Shown here: positions 10,706 through 32,000 of the stretch, piece after piece
Layout: every line of letters starts with the position of its first letter
Numbering within the stretch: position 1 is the stretch's first letter
NCBI RefSeq assembly: GCF_035285525.1
Contig: NZ_JAYKGW010000224.1
Span: 4,125-36,124 of the forward strand
Direction of reading: 5' to 3'
Origin: Okeania sp.
Lineage (GTDB): Bacteria; Cyanobacteriota; Cyanobacteriia; Cyanobacteriales; Microcoleaceae
Length of the DNA: 32,000 bases
Program-made: the position numbers and the translations under genes
Notes under the pieces: generated by a model
Seen by the model: the letters and a program-made list of their open reading frames with translations, nothing else
What the model was told of the DNA's origin: nothing
The model's database searches: none

Positions 10706-11428
10706 ATGACTAATATTGTCAAATCTTCTCTAAATAAAGAACAAACCACTGCCTGGTTAAGAGGACTAATGACCATTGCTTATGCAGATGGAGAACTTGA
10801 TACAGCAGAAAAAGATTTATTTGACCACTTTAGTCACGAAGAATTTGCTTCAAAAATTGAAATTTCCGAACTCAAACCTATTAGTCCAGATGATTTAGCA
10901 AAAGTATTTGGAGAAAATCCTACTCTAGCAGAAAATTTTATGAGAACTGCTGTAATGGTAGCTTTAGCAGATGGAATTTATTCTGTGACTGAGGATGAAG
11001 TGCTTCATAAATATTGTGATGCTTTGGGATTAAAGGTTAAAGCATTAGAAGCATTGCGGAAAAATTTGGAGAAAGCTAAGGAACAAGCAGAAAATGATAC
11101 TTTAGAAAGTTGGCTAGAAGAAACTGAACATATAGATAGCTCTACTATTCCCCATGACCCCGAACACCATAAAACCGTTCTTGCTCCCATCAAAGATTGG
11201 TTGGATGGGTGGGATATTCACGATCCCAAAGTGGCTCACATGGTTTGTAAGATGATTCCTGCTCAATGTCCATTTGAACGAGATGTGGTGGTTTTTGGGA
11301 AGAAGGTAGCCCACATTCCAGCGATGTGCAAGCTTAACCCAGTTTACGATCAGTTAGTTGGTCTGCGTTTTCGCGCTTTATCATATTTGGCAGATGAATG
11401 TCAAGAGGATGTTTCTAAATATTTTTAG
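10706..11428 (+). CDS. TerB-like N-terminal domain fused to a Mo-dependent-nitrogenase C-terminal (Mo-nitro_C) domain protein
   Basis: The N-terminus has the TerB-like pattern WLRGLMTIAYADGELDTAEKDLF. The C-terminus CKMIPAQCPFERDVVVFGKKVAHIPAMCKLNPVYDQLVGLRFRALSYLADEC matches the cyanobacterial Mo-nitro_C family as remembered. Confidence 0.75.
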   Translation: MTNIVKSSLNKEQTTAWLRGLMTIAYADGELDTAEKDLFDHFSHEEFASKIEISELKPISPDDLAKVFGENPTLAENFMRTAVMVALADGIYSVTEDEVLHKYCDALGLKVKALEALRKNLEKAKEQAENDTLESWLEETEHIDSSTIPHDPEHHKTVLAPIKDWLDGWDIHDPKVAHMVCKMIPAQCPFERDVVVFGKKVAHIPAMCKLNPVYDQLVGLRFRALSYLADECQEDVSKYF

Positions 11429-11548
11429 TTTTTAGTTTTTAGTTTTTAGGGAATAGGGAATAGGGAATAGGTATGGAGGGAACAGGTATGGAGGGAACAC
11501 TTAACTGGGAATAGGGAACACTTAACTCTTAACTGGGAATAGGGAACA
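11422..11548. repeat. Composite heptamer array (TTTTTAG x4, GGAATAG x3, GGGAACA-type units) forming the left inverted-repeat arm around the four-helix-bundle gene
   Basis: Units were counted directly. The stop TAG of the upstream gene (11426-11428) lies in the first unit. GGGAACACTTAACTGGGAA occurs here and as its reverse complement at 12103-12137. Confidence 0.85.
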
Positions 11549-11581: not shown

Positions 11582-11875
11582 ATGTCTGGTATTAATGATT
11601 TTAAAGATTTAAAAATTTGGCAAAACGGAATGGATATTGCCGAAAAATGCTATTTCTTGACTAAACTTTTTCCCAAAGATGAATTATATGGTATGGTGCA
11701 ACAAATAAGGAGAAGCGCTGTATCTATTCCTGCTAATATAGCTGAAGGTTATGGGCGAAGATACACTGGAGAATATTTGAGATTCTTAAACATTGCTCAA
11801 GGTTCAATTAATGAATTAGAAACACACTTAATTTTGTCTGAACGAGTAGGGTTATGTGAAAAAAAAAAGAAATAG
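11582..11875 (+). CDS. Four-helix-bundle protein of the 23S rRNA intervening-sequence (S23-IVS / Avd-like) family, apparently 3'-truncated by a frameshift
   Basis: Family hallmarks are present: LKIWQ..MDI, SIPANIAEGYGR and AQGSINELETHL. The ORF ends in an A10 tract (gaaaaaaaaaag). The expected C-terminal helix continues in other frames (EIETIISLLTEES, then KMIIDYCFD). Confidence 0.75.
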   Translation: MSGINDFKDLKIWQNGMDIAEKCYFLTKLFPKDELYGMVQQIRRSAVSIPANIAEGYGRRYTGEYLRFLNIAQGSINELETHLILSERVGLCEKKKK

Positions 11876-11975: not shown

Positions 11976-12137
11976 TTCCTTCCTATTCCCTCAAAAAATA
12001 CTTTTTTTCTTCCTTAACTACTTCCTATTCTCTGTTCTCTATTCCCTCAAAAAATACTTTTTTTTCCTAACTATTCTCTGTTCCCTATTCCCTACTATTC
12101 CCTGTTCCCAGTTAAGTGTTCCCAGTTAAGTGTTCCC
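11976..12137. repeat. Heptamer-rich right inverted-repeat arm (CCTATTCCC / CTGTTCCC units; CCCAGTTAAGTGTTCCC x2)
   Basis: This is the reverse complement of motifs in 11495-11548. It ends 10 nt before the obg ATG. Confidence 0.85.
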
Positions 12138-15046: not shown

Positions 15047-15144
15047 ATTTATTAACTCAAAGAAACCAGCAATAAGTCAGTTATCAGTTATCAGTACCTC
15101 GTCCAATGAGAAGACTTAAGATACTGAGTTTTCTGTTCTTAACC

Positions 15145-15264
15145 CAGGACTTACGCAAAATAACCTATTTCGTCGTTGCCAGGGACAAGGTTTACGTTTC
15201 ATTTGCATAGCAAAGGAGTCCGTAAGGATAGCAATATCAAACACCCATAATTTGTTAAGTCCTG
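15145..15264. mobile_element. MITE-like element, family 2
   Basis: CAGGACTTACGCA ... TTGTTAAGTCCTG terminal inverted repeats. Confidence 0.6.
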
Positions 15265-15418
15265 ATACCCTTAAAAGGCCAGGCTTGAAACCTGACTTTC
15301 TGGTTAATTGGCCTGTCAGTAGATAACTGTTAATATTATACTCTTTACAGAGAATGATTGCTACAAATGCTCCTTAATATAAAATTCAGATGATTACTAT
15401 TTTTATAATGCAAATAAT

Positions 15419-15447
15419 AAGGATGATACCTGATAATTATCATCCTT
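15419..15447 (-). terminator. Candidate intrinsic terminator for the small ORF at 15475-15675
   Basis: A 10-bp perfect stem (AAGGATGATA / TATCATCCTT) with a 9-nt loop, followed on the minus strand by the T-rich ATTATTT. Confidence 0.4.
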
Positions 15448-15474
15448 AATAAGAATAGCATAATTAATATTTAA

Positions 15475-15675
15475 CTATATTTTTGCAGTTTGATAACGTC
15501 TTTGTTTAATATTTATAAATGCCAACATATTATTGGTCTTTAAATACCAATTTATTTTCCTTGATAAATCAACAATTAAGTTGATGGAAAATGGATGTCT
15601 TAAGAAAGCGATATAGGGTTTAAGAAACATTATCCACAGGGTAGTTTCTAATACTAAACTTTTGAGTTCATCCAT
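15475..15675 (-). CDS. Small hypothetical protein (66 aa)
   Basis: AAGGAG lies 7 nt upstream of the ATG and a hairpin lies ~30 nt after the stop. There is one hydrophobic segment. No family was recognised. Confidence 0.35.
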   Translation of the reverse strand: MDELKSLVLETTLWIMFLKPYIAFLRHPFSINLIVDLSRKINWYLKTNNMLAFINIKQRRYQTAKI

Positions 15676-15908
15676 GTATTTTTCTCCTTATATTTTCTCA
15701 TCCTAAATAACAGTTTTAATCTGGGAAAGAGGCGTCTGTAAGCAGCCTTCAGCACTCTGCATTCAGAAGTGCAAGCAGAGGAATAAAGCTGAAGTTATAC
15801 TGTTTCACGGCAGTAAAAAGTCATGTTTTGAGAACTTATAGACTCAAAACTTTGACACTAGAGTAATTTCAAGAAATTATTTCACAATGAAAGTTGGAAA
15901 CTCTCTGT

Positions 15909-16055
15909 GATATCAAATCTGGTAGTATCGGTAAAATTCTCTCTCTGTAAAGGTTTGGTCTCCAATTTATCGGAAACCGCACTCTCTACAAACAAACTAA
16001 GAATTTTAGCTCTTTTCTGATGGTAGAACCTGATTCTCGAAAGCAGATTTGATAT
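15909..16055. mobile_element. MITE-like element, family 5 (termini GATATCAAATCTG ... CAGATTTGATAT; core GGTTTGGTCTCCAA)
   Basis: Terminal inverted repeats were read directly. A related copy is nested at ~19865-19955. Confidence 0.55.
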
Positions 16056-17152
16056 GATATCCTTAATATGAATTGATATCAGAAGGCGCGCAGTTACAGC
16101 AAATTACCAGTATAAGAATTACAGATATTAATAATTCACCAGATTTCAAGTAAATGAGGTAGAAGGGAAATGGCAAAAGCATTTTAGTGCGATTTTTCGG
16201 GAACCGTGCATTTTGCTCCCATGAATGTAACTCACACCTGGTAAAATCTGCTGTAAATTAACAGCACAGAATATTTGATAATGTCTGCACCATAAATGCG
16301 TAACACTGCATCAGTTTCTGTAACGAATTTTATAATCTGCCACTTTTTATGTTGCGCAACATTTTGTATTAGCAGTTGTCGAAAATAGCGATCGCTGACA
16401 CTAAATAAGTAGCACACTTTGCGGAGCGCAAAAAGCGCACTACACTTATTCTCAACAAACGTAGAGGGTTTTAAACCCTTAAATTTTTAGCCGATCTCTG
16501 TTCGCCAAGCATTCCCAATAATGAGAAATCCTATAGTAGCGATCGCTAATAAATACTAGATTCAGTATGAATAAGTCGGGTTTGAAGAAGGAAATCAGGA
16601 GTTTGGGCGATCGCCTGGAAATTTTTACTTCTACTCTAATTGCTACAGTAGAGATAGCTTTAAGTTTTCCAACCTTTTCGGTATTAGGAAAACTTTTTCC
16701 TGACAGCCAATTCTCTTGTTTATAAGAAGAGGTAATTATTAACAATTAATTATTAATTATTTAACTACTCATTCTTCCCTTCTACCGAAGGTATTGAAAA
16801 TCACCAGAAGCGAATAGAGTGACTTAACTACCACGACTAATCCATCTGTTAATTAAGTTTTACCGCTAATTTAATCCCACTATATTGACTGAATGGAAAT
16901 AAATTTTTTCTCTAGGTAGCTTCGTGACCAAACCACATATACAAATCTTCTAAACAGCTACTGAAAAGAAAACTGTTAGAAGTAACACTTTACTTATATG
17001 TAATTTTACTCTGCTACAAAGTATTGTTTTTGTTTCAGCAGTAAACTTTCTTAATTATCATCTTAATAAATATTTCGTTTTCGTCTAAGTATATATACCC
17101 GTACACAAAGGTGAGGTTTTCAACACTTGACTATTATTTACCTTTGAGAAAA

Positions 17153-17252
17153 ATTCCACACTTCAATTTGTAGTATTAAACTAGGAGTCAAAATTTTCTC
17201 TGGATTCTGACTCCTGGATTCTGGATTAGTACTACATTTTGACGTGCGGAAT
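17153..17252. mobile_element. 100-bp MITE-like unit (ATTCCACACTTCAATTTGTAGTAT ... AGTACTACATTTTGACGTGCGGAAT)
   Basis: ~24-bp imperfect terminal inverted repeats enclosing a GGAGTCA/TGACTCC hairpin. Confidence 0.5.
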
Positions 17253-17302
17253 GTAAGTTTTAATATATTTAGCTACTAATTAAAGTTAAAAGCGTTGAGA
17301 AA

Positions 17303-17589
17303 TAGGGCTGGCTGAATAAATATAGAAGCATTGATAGATAAAGATTTTAGAGTTTTTAGGTATCAAAAAGTCTGAACTTGTAGGTTACTGAGGTACGGTT
17401 CCCGAAAAATCAGAAATTGAGCATTTTTGGCTAACTATGATATCGGGATTTAGGGAACGACCCTAGATATGGTGTTTAAAACCATGGCGCAATCGTTTTT
17501 CGCATCTATATATAGTACCTTGGCGTAAGTCCTGAATATAAGAATAACTCTTACTCTATTTCCGGCCAACTCCTCTTTCAGCAATTAAC
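17303..17589. mobile_element. Family 1 MITE variant with nested insertions (degenerate right end)
   Basis: TAGGGCTGGCTGAATAAATAT at the left end and CTTTCAGCAA at the right end. The interior contains ACGGTTCCCGAAAAATC and GCGTAAGTCCTG motifs. Confidence 0.5.
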
Positions 17590-17736
17590 AATGAAAAATT
17601 AATAATTAATAATTACTCCCTCTTAAAAGAAGGGGATTGGCTAAAAGGAAAATTTTTATTTATCCCCTTAAAGGGGGAGACTTCCAGGCGTGAATTGTTG
17701 AATGAATAATTATTGACTATAAACCCTTGATTATTA

Positions 17737-17852
17737 CAGGACTTACGCATAATCGACCAGTTTTAGGCATTTGAGATTGCTATCCTAACAGACTGCTTCA
17801 CAAACGCGCCTCGCGAGCAATGACAGAAATACGTTGCGCGTGTGTAAGTCCT
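17737..17852. mobile_element. MITE-like element, family 2
   Basis: CAGGACTTACGCA ... TGTGTAAGTCCT termini. Confidence 0.6.
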
Positions 17853-17858
17853 ATATTA

Positions 17859-17961
17859 ACAGGACAGAAACACGCGCAACCAAGAAACCGGGTTTCTTGC
17901 CCTAATATTGTGGTTAAAACCACGAAATTTAGTTGATAAACCCAGTTTCTGCGTAAGTCCT
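17859..17961. mobile_element. MITE-like element, family 2 (tandem to the previous copy)
   Basis: CAGGACAGAAACACGC ... TGCGTAAGTCCT termini. The interior contains the AGAAACCGGGTTTCT palindrome. Confidence 0.5.
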
Positions 17962-18318
17962 ATATTAGTTATTAATTGTTTAGTAACTCCTATTTTTCTT
18001 AACTCTGTAAGGACATTCCATCCAACCTCCCTACGACTTCCTATCTCCACCATCAGACTTTTGTTAGCAAACCCCAAATAAAGCTTTTAGCCTTTTTATA
18101 TTGAAAAAAGTACTTAGTTTTTGGCTGTTGTTATGTCAAAATGATAAAATTTTGACCCTGACTACGAGAAAATTTGGCCGTAGGACATTACCTCTGTCAA
18201 AATAGCGGTCAGGGTTTCCCTGGCTGAAGAATCCCCCATTTTCCCGTAAGGGCAACGTCGGGATTATATCAATAAATGTCATTCAACTCCGTTTTGATTC
18301 ATCTAACAACTCAAAGTT

Positions 18319-27620: not shown

Positions 27621-28823
27621 TTAGGTGAAAACTAAATCTAAAATTGCTTGAGCTGCCCGATCGCATACCCCTTCTTTTCCCAAAGATTGACGCATTTCTT
27701 GATAATCAGCTAATGTTTGATTACGACGTTGAGAGTTCAATAAAAGTTCCAAAGCTTCAGAAATAATATTTTCCGCAGTAGCATTTTCTTGGAATAATTC
27801 TGGTACAATAGATTTCATTTGCACTAGATTCGGTGGAGACATAAATGGAATCGAAAATCTCAGAATATTTCTCGCTATCCAAACAGTTATGGGATTAACT
27901 TTATAAATGACAACTTGAGGAACATTTAATAAAGCTATTTCCAAATTTACAGTACCAGATTTAGCGATCGCCAAATCAGCACCAGCCAAAATTTCTAAAT
28001 TATTCCTTTCTTGTATTTCTTGACTACTTTGTGGAGAAGATGGATAAATGGTTGCCTGTAGTTGATACTTTTTAATTGCTTCTACAATGGGTGAACGATA
28101 AATTTCTAAAGAGAGAGGAATCAGAAAATGAACTTGAGGTAATCTTTCCTGAATAATTTTAGCAGCTTCAAAAATTACAGGCATTAAATATTTAACCTCT
28201 TGTTTTCGAGAAGCAGGAAATAAAGCGAGCGCCAAAGTATCAGCAGATATTCCCAAACTACGGCGAGCATCTTCTCTAGTGGGAGCGTTTTTAACTCTAT
28301 CAATAATAGGATGACCTACCCAAGTAACATTAGCTCCCTTTGCCCGAAAATAATTTGCCTCTTCTGGAAAAATAGCCAAAAGTTTGTTTGTCAAATTAAC
28401 TATTTTAGATGTTTTACTTTTTCCCAGAGACCAAACCCATTCTTGAGGAGCAATGTACCAAACAATTGGCAAATTCTGATAATTTTTATGAATATAACTA
28501 CCAATATTTAGATTAGGACCCATGTAGTCAATCAAAATAACTATATCAGGAGATTCGTTGCGTAAATATTCTTTAGCTTTTTGTTGAACTTTCAGAGTCG
28601 GGAAAATGAAAGACAAAGATTCAATAATTCCCACAGAACCTATTTTAGTTGTACTTCCCAATAAAGTAGCACCAGCAGCAGCCATTTTTTCGCCACCCAA
28701 AGCAACAATATCCAAATTTAAACCCCGAAGTTGAGCTTGACGGTGAAGTGCTTCCACTAACAAAGCACCTTGTAAATCTCCAGAAACTTCACCTGTACTA
28801 ATAAAAATTTTCATAGAAGTCAT
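27621..28823 (-). CDS. lpxB: Lipid-A-disaccharide synthase LpxB
   Basis: MKIFISTGEVSGDLQGALLVEAL is the canonical LpxB N-terminus. It is ~390-400 aa and sits in operon context with lpxA/fabZ/lpxC. The alternative start is Met4. Confidence 0.9.
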   Translation of the reverse strand: MTSMKIFISTGEVSGDLQGALLVEALHRQAQLRGLNLDIVALGGEKMAAAGATLLGSTTKIGSVGIIESLSFIFPTLKVQQKAKEYLRNESPDIVILIDYMGPNLNIGSYIHKNYQNLPIVWYIAPQEWVWSLGKSKTSKIVNLTNKLLAIFPEEANYFRAKGANVTWVGHPIIDRVKNAPTREDARRSLGISADTLALALFPASRKQEVKYLMPVIFEAAKIIQERLPQVHFLIPLSLEIYRSPIVEAIKKYQLQATIYPSSPQSSQEIQERNNLEILAGADLAIAKSGTVNLEIALLNVPQVVIYKVNPITVWIARNILRFSIPFMSPPNLVQMKSIVPELFQENATAENIISEALELLLNSQRRNQTLADYQEMRQSLGKEGVCDRAAQAILDLVFT

Positions 28824-29071: not shown

Positions 29072-29875
29072 TTAATTATTAATTATTTTTCCAGGCATTG
29101 GTCCGCGACGTTTCGACTGAACAGATAAGCTTAAAAACTGATGTAACTCTTGAATATACTTATTATCTGAAAGTAATTCTAATTCTTCTAAAGCTTCACT
29201 AAAAAGTTTACCCGAACGATAGAGAATCCGAAAAGCCTTTTTCAATATTGCTAAATCTTCACTGGTTAAACCAGCACGCTTTAATCCTACTAAATTGAGC
29301 GATCGCACCAAACAAGGATTTCCCTCCACCAACATAAAAGGTGGCACATCTTGAACAACCCTAGCCATGCCACCCACCATTGCCATTTTACCAATATGAA
29401 CAAACTGATGAATACCTACAATTCCACCAATTACAGCTTTAGACTCAATTTTAACATGACCTGCCAAAGATACAGCATTAGCTATGACCACAGAATCTTC
29501 AACAATACAATTATGCGCTACATGAACATAAGCCATTAGTAAATTACCATTACCAATAACCGTACTCTCTTCTTCATAAGTAGCACGGTTAACCGTAACA
29601 AATTCCCTAATTTGGTTATTATCACCAATTTTCACCATACTGGGAGCGCCCGCATATTTTAAATCTTGGGGTTCCAAACCAATAGCTGCCCCAGGAAAAA
29701 TTCGATTACCAGAGCCTATTTCTGTTGGCCCTTCAATTACAACATGAGCGCCAATAGTAGTTCCAGCCTCTACCTTTACCTTTTCTCCAATTACAGCATA
29801 AGGCCCCACCTGCACAGTGGGATGTAGTTCGGCACTTTCAGCAATAATGGCTGTGGGATGAATCAGAGTAGGCAT
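29072..29875 (-). CDS. lpxA: Acyl-ACP--UDP-N-acetylglucosamine O-acyltransferase LpxA
   Basis: IHPTAIIAESAELHPTVQVGPYAVIG is followed by hexapeptide repeats and a C-terminal helical domain. The ATG lies 4 nt after the fabZ stop. Confidence 0.95.
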   Translation of the reverse strand: MPTLIHPTAIIAESAELHPTVQVGPYAVIGEKVKVEAGTTIGAHVVIEGPTEIGSGNRIFPGAAIGLEPQDLKYAGAPSMVKIGDNNQIREFVTVNRATYEEESTVIGNGNLLMAYVHVAHNCIVEDSVVIANAVSLAGHVKIESKAVIGGIVGIHQFVHIGKMAMVGGMARVVQDVPPFMLVEGNPCLVRSLNLVGLKRAGLTSEDLAILKKAFRILYRSGKLFSEALEELELLSDNKYIQELHQFLSLSVQSKRRGPMPGKIINN

Positions 29876-29878
29876 ATT

Positions 29879-30403
29879 TTAATCCATAAGTGAAAACATC
29901 AAGTCCCCTTCAGCAGCTTTTTGACCATCTACTTCTGCCAGACCACGCATTTTGGCAAACCTACCTTTTCTAATAGATAGTAATTCTGTAGTTAATACTA
30001 GCTGGTCTCCTGGTACTACTGGACGACGGAATTTTACCTTATCCATAGCTGCAAATACAAATAATCCTGACTGAATCTCGGGCATTTGAGCGAATATTAT
30101 ACCCCCAACTTGCGCCAATGCTTCTATAATTAAGACTCCTGGCATAATTGGTCTTCCAGGAAAATGGCCTTGAAAATGGGGTTCATTAAAAGTCACATTT
30201 TTAATCCCAACAGCTTTTTCTCCCGGTACATATCCTATAATGCGGTCTACTAAAGCAAAGGGGTATCGGTGGGGTAATATTTTGTGAATTTCTTCCACAG
30301 TCAGAATATTTGTCCCAGTAGTTGTAGCCTCCTGATTTTCCTGAGTCTGAGGTTTGGCTGTGGTAGCTATGGAATTAGTTGTAGTTTCTTCAAAGGTTGA
30401 CAT
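29879..30403 (-). CDS. fabZ: 3-hydroxyacyl-ACP dehydratase FabZ
   Basis: [13 protein letters not shown] and [23 protein letters not shown] hot-dog signature. Confidence 0.95.
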
Positions 30404-30481: not shown

Positions 30482-30522
30482 GGGAATAGGTATGGAGGGA
30501 ACAGGGAACAGGGAACAGGGAA
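30482..30522. repeat. Heptamer module GGGAATAGGTATGGAGGGAACAGG + GGGAACA repeats
   Basis: The first 24 nt are identical to 11463-11486. They are followed by GGGAACA x3. Confidence 0.85.
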
Positions 30523-30620: not shown

Positions 30621-31539
30621 CTACTCTCTAATTTCAGAAATTTTTTTAGCTAATTGGATATGTAATTTATGGCTAGCTTTGTATGCCAAATAATGAGCTT
30701 GAGGAAAATTTCCCAATAAACTTAAGTCTCCAATTAGGTCTAACATTTTATGACGTACTGGTTCATTTGTAAACCTTAAGGGTGGATTTAACCATCCAGT
30801 TTCGCTACAAACTAGAGCATTTTCTAGAGTACCACCTTTGATTAAACCAGCTTCTCGTAATTTGTCAATTTGATGGGCTAAACCGAATGTCCGAGCTGGA
30901 GCAATACAGTCAGCAAAATTTTCTGTTTTCGGATACCAACTATACCATTGGTTACCAATAGCTGGCAAATCAAAATCTATACCATAAGTAAAGCGAGTTT
31001 CTGGACTAGGTAAAGCTGCCACAAAAGCATCCCCATCATATACCCATACTGGTTGATAAATCACAGGTGGGTTATGAAATCTTAGGTCTGGAGCATAAGT
31101 ATTTTTACTTCCCATCTCCGCGTCCCCCCATCTCCCCATCTCCCCATCTCCCCATCTCCCGATCTTCTTCTTTTGCTTCTACTAATCCTACGGAAGTGAT
31201 CGCCTCTGTCCAGACTTTGGCAGAACCATCTAATAAGGGAACTTCTGGGCTATCAATTTCTATTCGAGCATTATTTATGCCCATTCCTGCTAGGGCAGCT
31301 AATAAATGTTCTACAGTCCGGATGTGAATATCTCGAACACCTAATTCTGTGGAAAGGGTAGTAGAAATTACAGAAGATATTCTAGCATTGATAATTGGAG
31401 TTTCTGGCAAGTCAACCCTGACAAAATATCTACCTGTATTTTGAGCAGCAGGCATAACTTTAATATGAGATTTTATACCACTATGTAAACCTATTCCGGA
31501 CTGTGAAAATTCTGATCCTAAAGTATATTGATTATTCAT
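30621..31539 (-). pseudogene. lpxC: UDP-3-O-acyl-GlcNAc deacetylase LpxC, reading frame broken inside an internal 8-nt tandem repeat (or homopolymer sequencing error)
   Basis: The N-terminal ORF (31105-31539) carries GIGLHSG..., IRTVEHLLAALAGMGI and PLLDGSA. The C-terminal ORF (30621-31139) carries [22 protein letters not shown] and YKASHKLH. The two frames overlap in the repeat 31113-31160. Confidence 0.85.
31113..31160. repeat. Octamer tandem repeat CATCTCCC (4 perfect + 2 degenerate units) inside lpxC
   Basis: The perfect units span 31129-31160 and the degenerate units CATCTCCG and CGTCCCCC span 31113-31128. On the coding strand it reads GGGAGATG, encoding EMGRWGDG-type peptide in any frame. 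Confidence 0.9.
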
Positions 31540-31697
31540 AATTCTGGGAAATAATTTTTTTATCGTTTGTTACACAGGCATCTTGTCTGTAATAGCTGTA
31601 CCTTAATCAATGCAATTTTGAAAATAGTAGAAAAATTGGTAGTTGTGTATAGTTCTAGTAATGGTATGCTAAAAATCAGGAAGATAGATACGCGGAA

Positions 31698-31879
31698 GCA
31701 AGATGCTCCTACTGTTTTCCTAGCAAAGGTAATGAAAATGCACGACTATTACAATACACCACTACCGAAAAATCAAAGGAATACCTGATATGGGAGCAAG
31801 ATGCTCTCACTGTACCTCCTAACAAAGGTAATAAAAATGCACGACTATTACAATACACCACTACCGAAAAATGAAGGAA
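31698..31879. repeat. Tandem direct repeat, 98-bp period, two copies, upstream of lpxC
   Basis: GCAAGATGCTC..ACTGT...AAAGGTAATgAAAATGCACGACTATTACAATACACCACTACCGAAAAAT is repeated from 31796. There is a long identical core with divergence at the edges. Confidence 0.85.
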
Positions 31880-31906: not shown

Positions 31907-32000
31907 CCCCTACTCCCCTACTCCCCTACTCCCCTACTCCCCTACTCCCCTACTCCCCTACTCCCCTACTCCCCTACTCCCCTACTCCCCTACTCCCCTA
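31907..32000. repeat. Octamer tandem array CCCCTACT, at least 11 copies, running off the window edge
   Basis: The period of 8 was verified by the 2-nt phase drift per 10-nt column. No spacers, so this is not a CRISPR array. Confidence 0.95.

Follow-up and report, generated by a model that had tools for sequence, protein, structure and literature searches.

How does lpxC, the gene of the first committed lipid A enzyme, come to be out of frame in an otherwise intact operon, and is the break real? The question is raised by a stretch of 32,000 nt from Okeania sp. (Microcoleaceae; GC content 33.9%), which is referred to as the window. Here lpxC has no single continuous frame and is divided between two open reading frames (ORFs) in frames 0 and +1, with the switch inside a G-rich octanucleotide array at the linker between the two enzyme domains. 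The best account, held at an even chance, is a recent and accidental slip in the unit count of a hypermutable, G-quadruplex-prone coding repeat, and not an evolved device.

The frame switch lies inside an octanucleotide array

The first-pass annotation had described lpxC as two overlapping minus-strand ORFs with the second offset by one nucleotide, and the ORF list and Pfam agree with this description. The two ORFs overlap by 35 nt (Table 1). The Pfam LpxC family (PF03331) was matched by the 5' ORF at profile positions 1-121 (E=6e-42) and by the 3' ORF at profile positions 124-267 (E=4e-54). LpxC chains in the PDB matched the lpxC product with E ~4e-45. When the repaired protein (see below) was aligned to P. 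aeruginosa LpxC, residues 3-123 fell on 3-123 and residues 165-302 on 133-273; the residues that are extra relative to P. aeruginosa LpxC sit in the inter-domain linker.

The switch had been placed inside four GGGAGATG units plus two degenerate units on the plus strand, and Tandem Repeats Finder, a pattern search and direct reading located it there as well. Tandem Repeats Finder delimited the array at 31111-31165 (period 8, 6.9 copies, 85% matches), and a two-unit pattern was matched four times against 0.01 matches expected by chance. Written for the lpxC sense strand, the octamer unit is (GGGGAGAT)n, with the RNA form (GGGGAGAU)4 and the DNA form (GGGGAGAT)4. Folding of the array with ViennaRNA gave -30.4 kcal/mol with G-quadruplexes allowed versus -1.5 without, and a four-layer G-quadruplex was predicted. 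Repeats of the G-quadruplex type are prone to slippage. The octamer encodes the same cyclic peptide in all three frames. A special status of the octamer on account of its stop-free frames was considered and rejected: a stop-free octamer is unremarkable because 46% of all octamers lack a stop codon on both strands.

What shifts the frame

Because the tract has six units, domain II stands in the +1 frame and the gene is read as 144 + 172 aa. The frame is preserved only at n = 1, 4 or 7 units; with n = 6, the window is two units above the in-frame Trichodesmium orthologues and one below the next in-frame state. Three repairs had been proposed, and when computed each gave one ORF: deletion of one C from 31124-31129 (305 aa), addition of one unit (308 aa) and deletion of two units (300 aa). 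The 305 aa expected from the single-C correction, for an LpxC with a repeat-encoded insertion between its domains, were thereby confirmed.

When the window was aligned by MAFFT to two Trichodesmium orthologues that are in frame, the sole gap was one of exactly 16 nt (two units) between conserved anchors, and no 1-nt indel was found between these anchors. The interval from GAAGAT to AATACT consists of six units and a 10-nt tail in the window (58 nt), and of four units and a 10-nt tail in Trichodesmium MAG_R03 (42 nt). With the 16-nt gap as the only difference in length, the problem is therefore one of unit count and not of a surplus nucleotide in the C6 run. Each of the six units measures 8 nt, and the sense-strand G6, which stems from a substitution in unit 5, leaves this period intact; removing a G would leave a 7-nt unit. 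The 22 other ORFs of the window (19.8 kb), for which Pfam coverage is full length, hold 52 homopolymer runs of at least 6 nt (16 of them at least 7 nt), and none of these breaks its ORF. With 16 nt as the only indel and these 52 runs unbroken, a homopolymer error in the C6 run, which the first-pass annotation had listed among its options, becomes the least parsimonious one.

The unit number would have been changed by slipped-strand events that took the array either from seven units down to six or from four up to six. The simplest route to six units is the loss of one unit from seven.

The repeat in related LpxC proteins

The closest LpxC sequences, at ~81% identity, are those of Trichodesmium, Okeania and Dapis. 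The first-pass annotation had taken Nostocales as the kin group; this was incorrect, the source being Okeania sp., a marine member of the Microcoleaceae, with neighbouring genes that match Okeania sp. proteins exactly. It had also raised the points of whether the insertion exists in related LpxC proteins and in which copy number. In Okeania, Dapis, Trichodesmium and Symploca, the sense-strand octamer is found at the inter-domain linker of lpxC, variable in copy number and always in frame, and is translated as (GDGEMGRW)n. In Dapis M172 (L003), 5 perfect units lie within a longer array, in frame; a metagenome contig (L073) has 9 perfect units at the lpxC linker, in frame; and Okeania KiyG1 (L112:683-813) has a GGGAGATG array of 16.4 copies. 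At the protein level, (GDGEMGRW)n was present at the linker of P0001, P0003-P0007, P0010, P0014, P0015, P0018, P0019 and P0026 (Okeania, Dapis and Symploca), and degenerate remnants of the octapeptide, e.g. EETGKWGNE, were present in Trichodesmium orthologues. Repeat-type LpxC linkers were further noted in P0042, P0070 and P0026.

In 94 cyanobacterial homologues, the linker was between 16 and 92 aa long. P0005 (313 aa) and P0187/P0188 (305 aa), which belong to one 90% cluster, differ by exactly one octapeptide, equal to three units, and an Okeania hirsuta cluster has members of 329, 335, 342 and 343 aa. Strain-level changes in linker length are limited to multiples of three units. Judged from the sequences compared, LpxC of the Okeania/Dapis/Trichodesmium lineage has inherited the octamer tract, which is polymorphic in length and is also found in Symploca. 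The idea that an array resembling short tandemly repeated repetitive (STRR) sequences was domesticated as coding sequence held as regards domestication, which is in frame and lineage-wide in relatives, but not as regards the type, the repeat being a G-quadruplex-type octamer and not a heptamer.

Other repeats occupy the same site elsewhere. At the LpxC linker, Kamptonema (L111:700-800) carries a 7-nt CAGTTAA array of 14.4 copies, which encodes QQLTVNS repeats, and a Trichodesmium-like metagenome-assembled genome (MAG; L005) carries a 9-nt GGAGGTGTG array. In P0272 and P0108, from other genera, the antisense reading of the octamer, ISPSPHL, is found at the LpxC linker. On this comparative evidence, short tandem repeats of filamentous cyanobacteria have a general landing site in the inter-domain linker of LpxC. 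This recurrence of repeat-encoded linkers appears to be an undescribed feature, and no paper on it was found in the library searched.

For structure prediction of P0005, an alignment of 29 close relatives gave a mean predicted local distance difference test (pLDDT) of 43, and a 94-sequence alignment was used instead. The resulting AlphaFold2 model had a mean pLDDT of 85 and a predicted template modelling score (pTM) of 0.84. pLDDT was below 50 only at residues 126-164, which are encoded by the array and are without secondary structure in the model. The array-encoded segment is thus predicted to be a disordered loop that joins two well-folded domains. The repeat-coded linker is tolerated as such a loop, and is common in the lineage and not peculiar to the window.

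Condition of the gene and consequence of the break

No further stop or indel was found in either lpxC half. Across 37 relatives, 112 columns are invariant; the repaired protein differs at one of them (N89 for D), and intact relatives differ at 0-3. The zinc ligands and catalytic residues (E78, H79, H238, D242, D246 and H265, E. coli numbering) are present and aligned to the P. aeruginosa residues. The motifs TVEHLL, RHKxLDxxGD and SHxLH (SHKLH in the window) are likewise present, and are invariant columns in both alignments A2 and A3. Because lpxC shows no other lesion, the lesion is very recent, or not real.

If living cells carry six units, full-length LpxC would by default be lost or strongly reduced, and further slippage could reverse this state. 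Anabaena with an interrupted lpxC (alr2270) grows and is sensitive to sodium dodecyl sulphate, lysozyme and ampicillin (PMC4488944). A break in lpxC therefore need not kill a filamentous cyanobacterium, which makes viability plausible.

Real allele or assembly artefact

With all readings taken together, the six-unit allele is rather probably real. Several points weigh against a slip in the genome itself. The unit count rests on one draft contig. Other assemblies break in the array or decay to G-rich junk (L109, L110; partial proteins P0127, P0192, P0195 and P0198), and from the breaks inside the array the tract must be regarded as technically difficult. No out-of-frame allele was present in ~50 relatives, and such an allele of the first committed lipid A enzyme would be expected to form the dominant genotype only rarely. 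Finally, intergenic arrays of the octamer motif in other genomes (L069-L071) contain 7-nt and 9-nt units; such irregular units weaken the periodicity argument, which is one of parsimony and not proof.

The main rival explanation, possible though short of likely, is that the true gene is intact, that the contig is off by one unit or has one extra G, and that a normal LpxC of ~305-308 aa is made. The gene is otherwise perfectly conserved and the frameshift in it a singleton; a large survey regards singleton frameshifts validated by BLAST and Pfam as for the most part sequencing errors or recent indels (PMC3711429). In several assemblies of Okeania and Dapis, contigs break off within the array, with G-rich junk at their ends, and the source of the window is a 36,124-nt draft-genome contig that is possibly a population consensus. 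An assembly artefact is opposed by the position of the array (55 nt) in mid-contig between unique flanks; an array of this length is shorter than ordinary reads and k-mers. In addition, 0 of 52 other coding homopolymer runs of at least 6 nt is broken, and if a single G were in error, the true unit would be one of 7 nt and Trichodesmium would differ by 15 nt, whereas a clean 16 nt was observed.

Exact look-ups of both lpxC ORFs returned no database protein. For lpxC of the same species, no locus with more than 81% identity was found in genome and metagenome collections, and no fragment with more than 90% identity in protein searches. The only same-species contig found, a Logan contig from SRR19514071 (L072), stops at a heptamer array that lies 107 nt upstream of fabZ, short of lpxC.

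Two candidates for a second split lpxC were rejected. In Okeania sp. SIO2C2 (L109; P0190, P0194), 20 nt separate the end of the gene from that of the contig, and the sequence there is degenerate and G-rich; in another cyanobacterial MAG (L110) the contig ends in the array. Contig ends within octamer arrays (L109:3440-3548 and L110:3440-3479) were observed to give rise to 'hypothetical protein' or non-partial LpxC entries of 166-175 aa, which are truncation artefacts.

Possible functions of the tract

It is unlikely that the octamer tract is a functional device, be it a reversible switch of lipid A or a tract whose out-of-frame counts still yield an active split LpxC.

The first form of such a device, evolved phase variation, is distinctly unlikely. 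The octamer would be a contingency locus that switches lipid A on and off, e.g. for escape from phages or grazers, and the assembly would have caught the OFF state. The 8-nt unit, not a multiple of 3, does lie inside an ORF, its number varies between and within species, and near-perfect repeats persist across genera, which implies continuing turnover. The Anabaena interruption mutant of lpxC is viable (PMC4488944). Against these points, the window is the only out-of-frame case and recurrent ON/OFF alleles were not seen: 10 related DNA loci and more than 40 related proteins are all in frame, and no other OFF allele was found among them. Slipped-strand on/off switching, as suggested in the first-pass annotation, therefore lacks a second out-of-frame allele. 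Moreover, there are only 4 perfect units in the window, and the tract lies mid-gene in a core biosynthetic enzyme, whereas phase switches typically act on genes for surface modification. Purifying selection on a tolerated loop explains the in-frame persistence equally well.

The second form, function despite the frameshift, is very unlikely. Either (a) the domains would be made as separate polypeptides that assemble, or (b) a +1 ribosomal shift at AUG GGG GGA would produce the full-length protein. Each ORF does correspond to one complete structural domain. As regards separate polypeptides, GGAG-N8-AUG modules are available in all three frames of the array, and domain II could initiate at 31139 or 31115, coupled to upstream translation; the stop of the upstream ORF is 8 nt beyond the second ATG. 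The predicted anti-Shine-Dalgarno duplex has -8.6 and -9.3 kcal/mol at the two ATGs, compared to +0.2 to -3.1 at real operon starts. With a GGAG and an AUG in each unit, domains I and II would still be expressed separately at whatever out-of-frame count. If true, this would make an essential gene robust to its own hypermutable linker. As regards recoding, the domain-II frame is open across the whole array, so that a +1 shift anywhere in ~60 nt would give the full-length protein. Re-pairing from GGG to the next G is perfect, and GGGGAG ends 3 nt upstream of the slippery GGG.

Both variants are opposed by the absence of the split from all relatives examined, and with the split not conserved, nothing indicates selection for it. 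The predicted G-quadruplex would mask the Shine-Dalgarno-like motifs, and the A-site codon GGA is neither a stop nor obviously slow. The active site of LpxC is built from residues of both domains, which counts against a split enzyme, and to our knowledge no natural split LpxC has been described. Programmed frameshifting is usually recognised by conservation of the site of the shift (PMC3711429). A -1 frameshift stimulated by the G-quadruplex was also considered and rejected, since -1 leads into a dead frame and +1 is required.

An old pseudogene, in which the lineage gave up lipid A or uses a second lpxC copy while this gene decays, is barely credible, for although the frame is broken and neither lpxC half is an NCBI protein while the neighbour genes are (which suggests a pseudogene annotation by the submitters), either half is free of further stops and indels, only 1 of 112 invariant columns deviates, as in intact relatives, fabZ, lpxA and lpxB are intact, and the gene is in frame in all relatives. 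The genuine pseudogene among the first-pass options thus finds no support as an established one.

Operon, neighbouring genes and other features of the window

Four genes only, lpxA, lpxC, lpxD and lpxB, make up the lipid A pathway of cyanobacteria, and the operon order lpxC-fabZ-lpxA-lpxB is typical of them (PMC3087551). That the rest of this operon is intact in the window, as had been stated, was borne out by exact NCBI matches for fabZ and lpxA and by a near-complete Pfam LpxB (Table 1). Other proteins of the window are also found exactly in NCBI under Okeania sp. (taxid 3100323), namely CpeS (MEB3343176) and CobA/HemD (MEB3343191), and a Mo-nitrogenase C-terminal domain protein is an exact match to MEB3343179 (Okeania sp.).

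Table 1. Coordinates of lpxC, its octamer array and the operon genes in the window.
Feature	Position	Strand	Basis and remarks
lpxC 5' ORF, 144 aa	31105..31539	-	ORF list; complete domain I and repeat-encoded tail; stop TAA 31107-31105
lpxC 3' ORF, 172 aa	30621..31139	-	ORF list; +1 frame; complete domain II with H-K-x-x-D, D and H catalytic motifs
Octanucleotide array, six units of exactly 8 nt	31113..31160	-	GGGAGATG x4, then GGGGGACG, then CGGAGATG; contains the frame switch
Four perfect GGGAGATG units	31129..31160	-	Pattern search
G-quadruplex motif, G3-4 N4 x4	31134-31160	sense strand	Regular expression (predicted)
C6 run (sense G6)	31124..31129	+	A-to-G substitution in unit 5; 8-nt period kept
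First ATG of domain-II frame	31137..31139	-	GGAG ends 8 nt upstream; second in-frame ATG 31115-31113
fabZ, intact, next operon gene	29879..30403	-	Exact match to NCBI FabZ MEB3343195.1, Okeania sp.
lpxA, intact	29072..29875	-	Exact match to NCBI LpxA MEB3343194.1; Pfam families on contig L072
lpxB, intact	27621..28823	-	Pfam LpxB positions 1-371 of 374, E=3e-100

Further repeats were observed around lpxC. A perfect (CCCCTACT) array of 11.8 copies at 31907-32000, ~370 nt upstream of the lpxC start, runs off the end of the window; on the lpxC sense strand it reads as the G-rich GGGGAGTA and has three matches to the G-quadruplex motif. Between this upstream octamer array and lpxC, at 31697-31879, a 99-nt direct repeat is present in 1.9 copies (89% matches) and has no Rfam match. 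The lpxC-fabZ spacer contains an (AGGGAAC) heptamer array of 3.9 copies at 30496-30522 with a plus-strand G-quadruplex motif, and L072 ends about there.

Two observations concern lpxC in other genomes. In a Microcoleaceae MAG (L006:3001-4354), the last ~30 lpxC codons occur twice, ~450 nt apart, which looks like an insertion that duplicated the 3' end. P0131, P0134, P0135, P0138, P0155 and P0173, from long contigs of other cyanobacteria whose genomes are complete or nearly so, are short N-terminal LpxC fragments only, with tails that read as out of frame; this suggests frameshifted lpxC genes or sequencing errors at scattered positions, unrelated to the octamer.

Elsewhere in the window, dense 7-nt to 21-nt arrays (TTTTTAG, TAGGGAA, AGGGAACAGGTATGG, CTATTCC and others) are located at 11422-11539 and 11983-12137. 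The gene between them (11582-11875) encodes a 97-aa protein of the 23S-rRNA-intervening-sequence protein family. A 3.3-kb region at 15047-18318, between genes for a Ser/Thr kinase and an MFS transporter, is without an ORF of at least 90 aa, an Rfam family or a tRNA. No Rfam families or tRNAs were found in the window as a whole.

Significance

By itself the frameshift is of modest importance: it affects a single copy of a conserved gene in one draft genome, and it is probably mundane. Of wider interest is that repeats of a non-coding type (8-nt GGGGAGAT, 7-nt STRR-like and 9-nt) have recurrently become coding in the inter-domain loop of LpxC. The locus is a natural system for slippage rates and frame selection in a G-quadruplex-prone coding repeat. 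It could also show how ribosomes read such a tract, and whether natural mat-forming marine cyanobacteria lose lipid A. On the practical side, the tract breaks assemblies and leads to false 'partial' or 'hypothetical' LpxC annotations.

Comparison with known systems

With LpxC of known structure (PF03331; 4J3D, 4MDT, 1P42), the lpxC of the window shares both domains, the zinc ligands and the catalytic residues. The window ORF is interrupted, and the linker of the repaired protein is ~40 aa long and repeat-encoded, compared to a 9-residue unaligned gap in P. aeruginosa LpxC.

A +1 frameshift of the prfB type is resembled in the need for +1 and in a GGGGAG that ends 3 nt before a re-pairing P-site GGG; this resemblance follows automatically from the repeat sequence. 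In contrast to prfB, the A-site codon is GGA, neither a stop nor an obviously slow codon, and the shift is conserved in no orthologue.

Slipped-strand contingency loci of Haemophilus, Neisseria and others (PMC3315296, PMC3711429) have in common with the lpxC tract a repeat inside an ORF, a unit that is not a multiple of three, frame shifts, and copy-number differences between strains. Their units are 1-5 nt long, whereas the lpxC tract has 8-nt units, four of them perfect. It further differs in its place, the middle of a core lipid A gene in a free-living cyanobacterium, with only one out-of-frame allele seen, and in being translated as a tolerated loop in every relative.

G-rich, G-quadruplex-forming short tandem repeats (GGGNATC, GGGGA(C/T)T), including STRR-type heptamers, have been described in cyanobacteria and Xanthomonas by Rehm et al. 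(2015, PMC4692102); four units are preferred, and the repeats are under-represented on the coding strand of ORFs (PMC4692102). The lpxC tract is like them in being G-rich, with G3-4 per unit, four perfect units and a predicted G-quadruplex, and the window also has several related 7-nt and 8-nt intergenic arrays. Unlike these and STRR repeats, its unit is the octamer GGGGAGAT and not a heptamer, it lies on the sense strand inside a coding region, and it is conserved at one orthologous site across genera. The lpxC tract works like slippage loci of coding simple sequence repeats and looks like G-quadruplex repeats.

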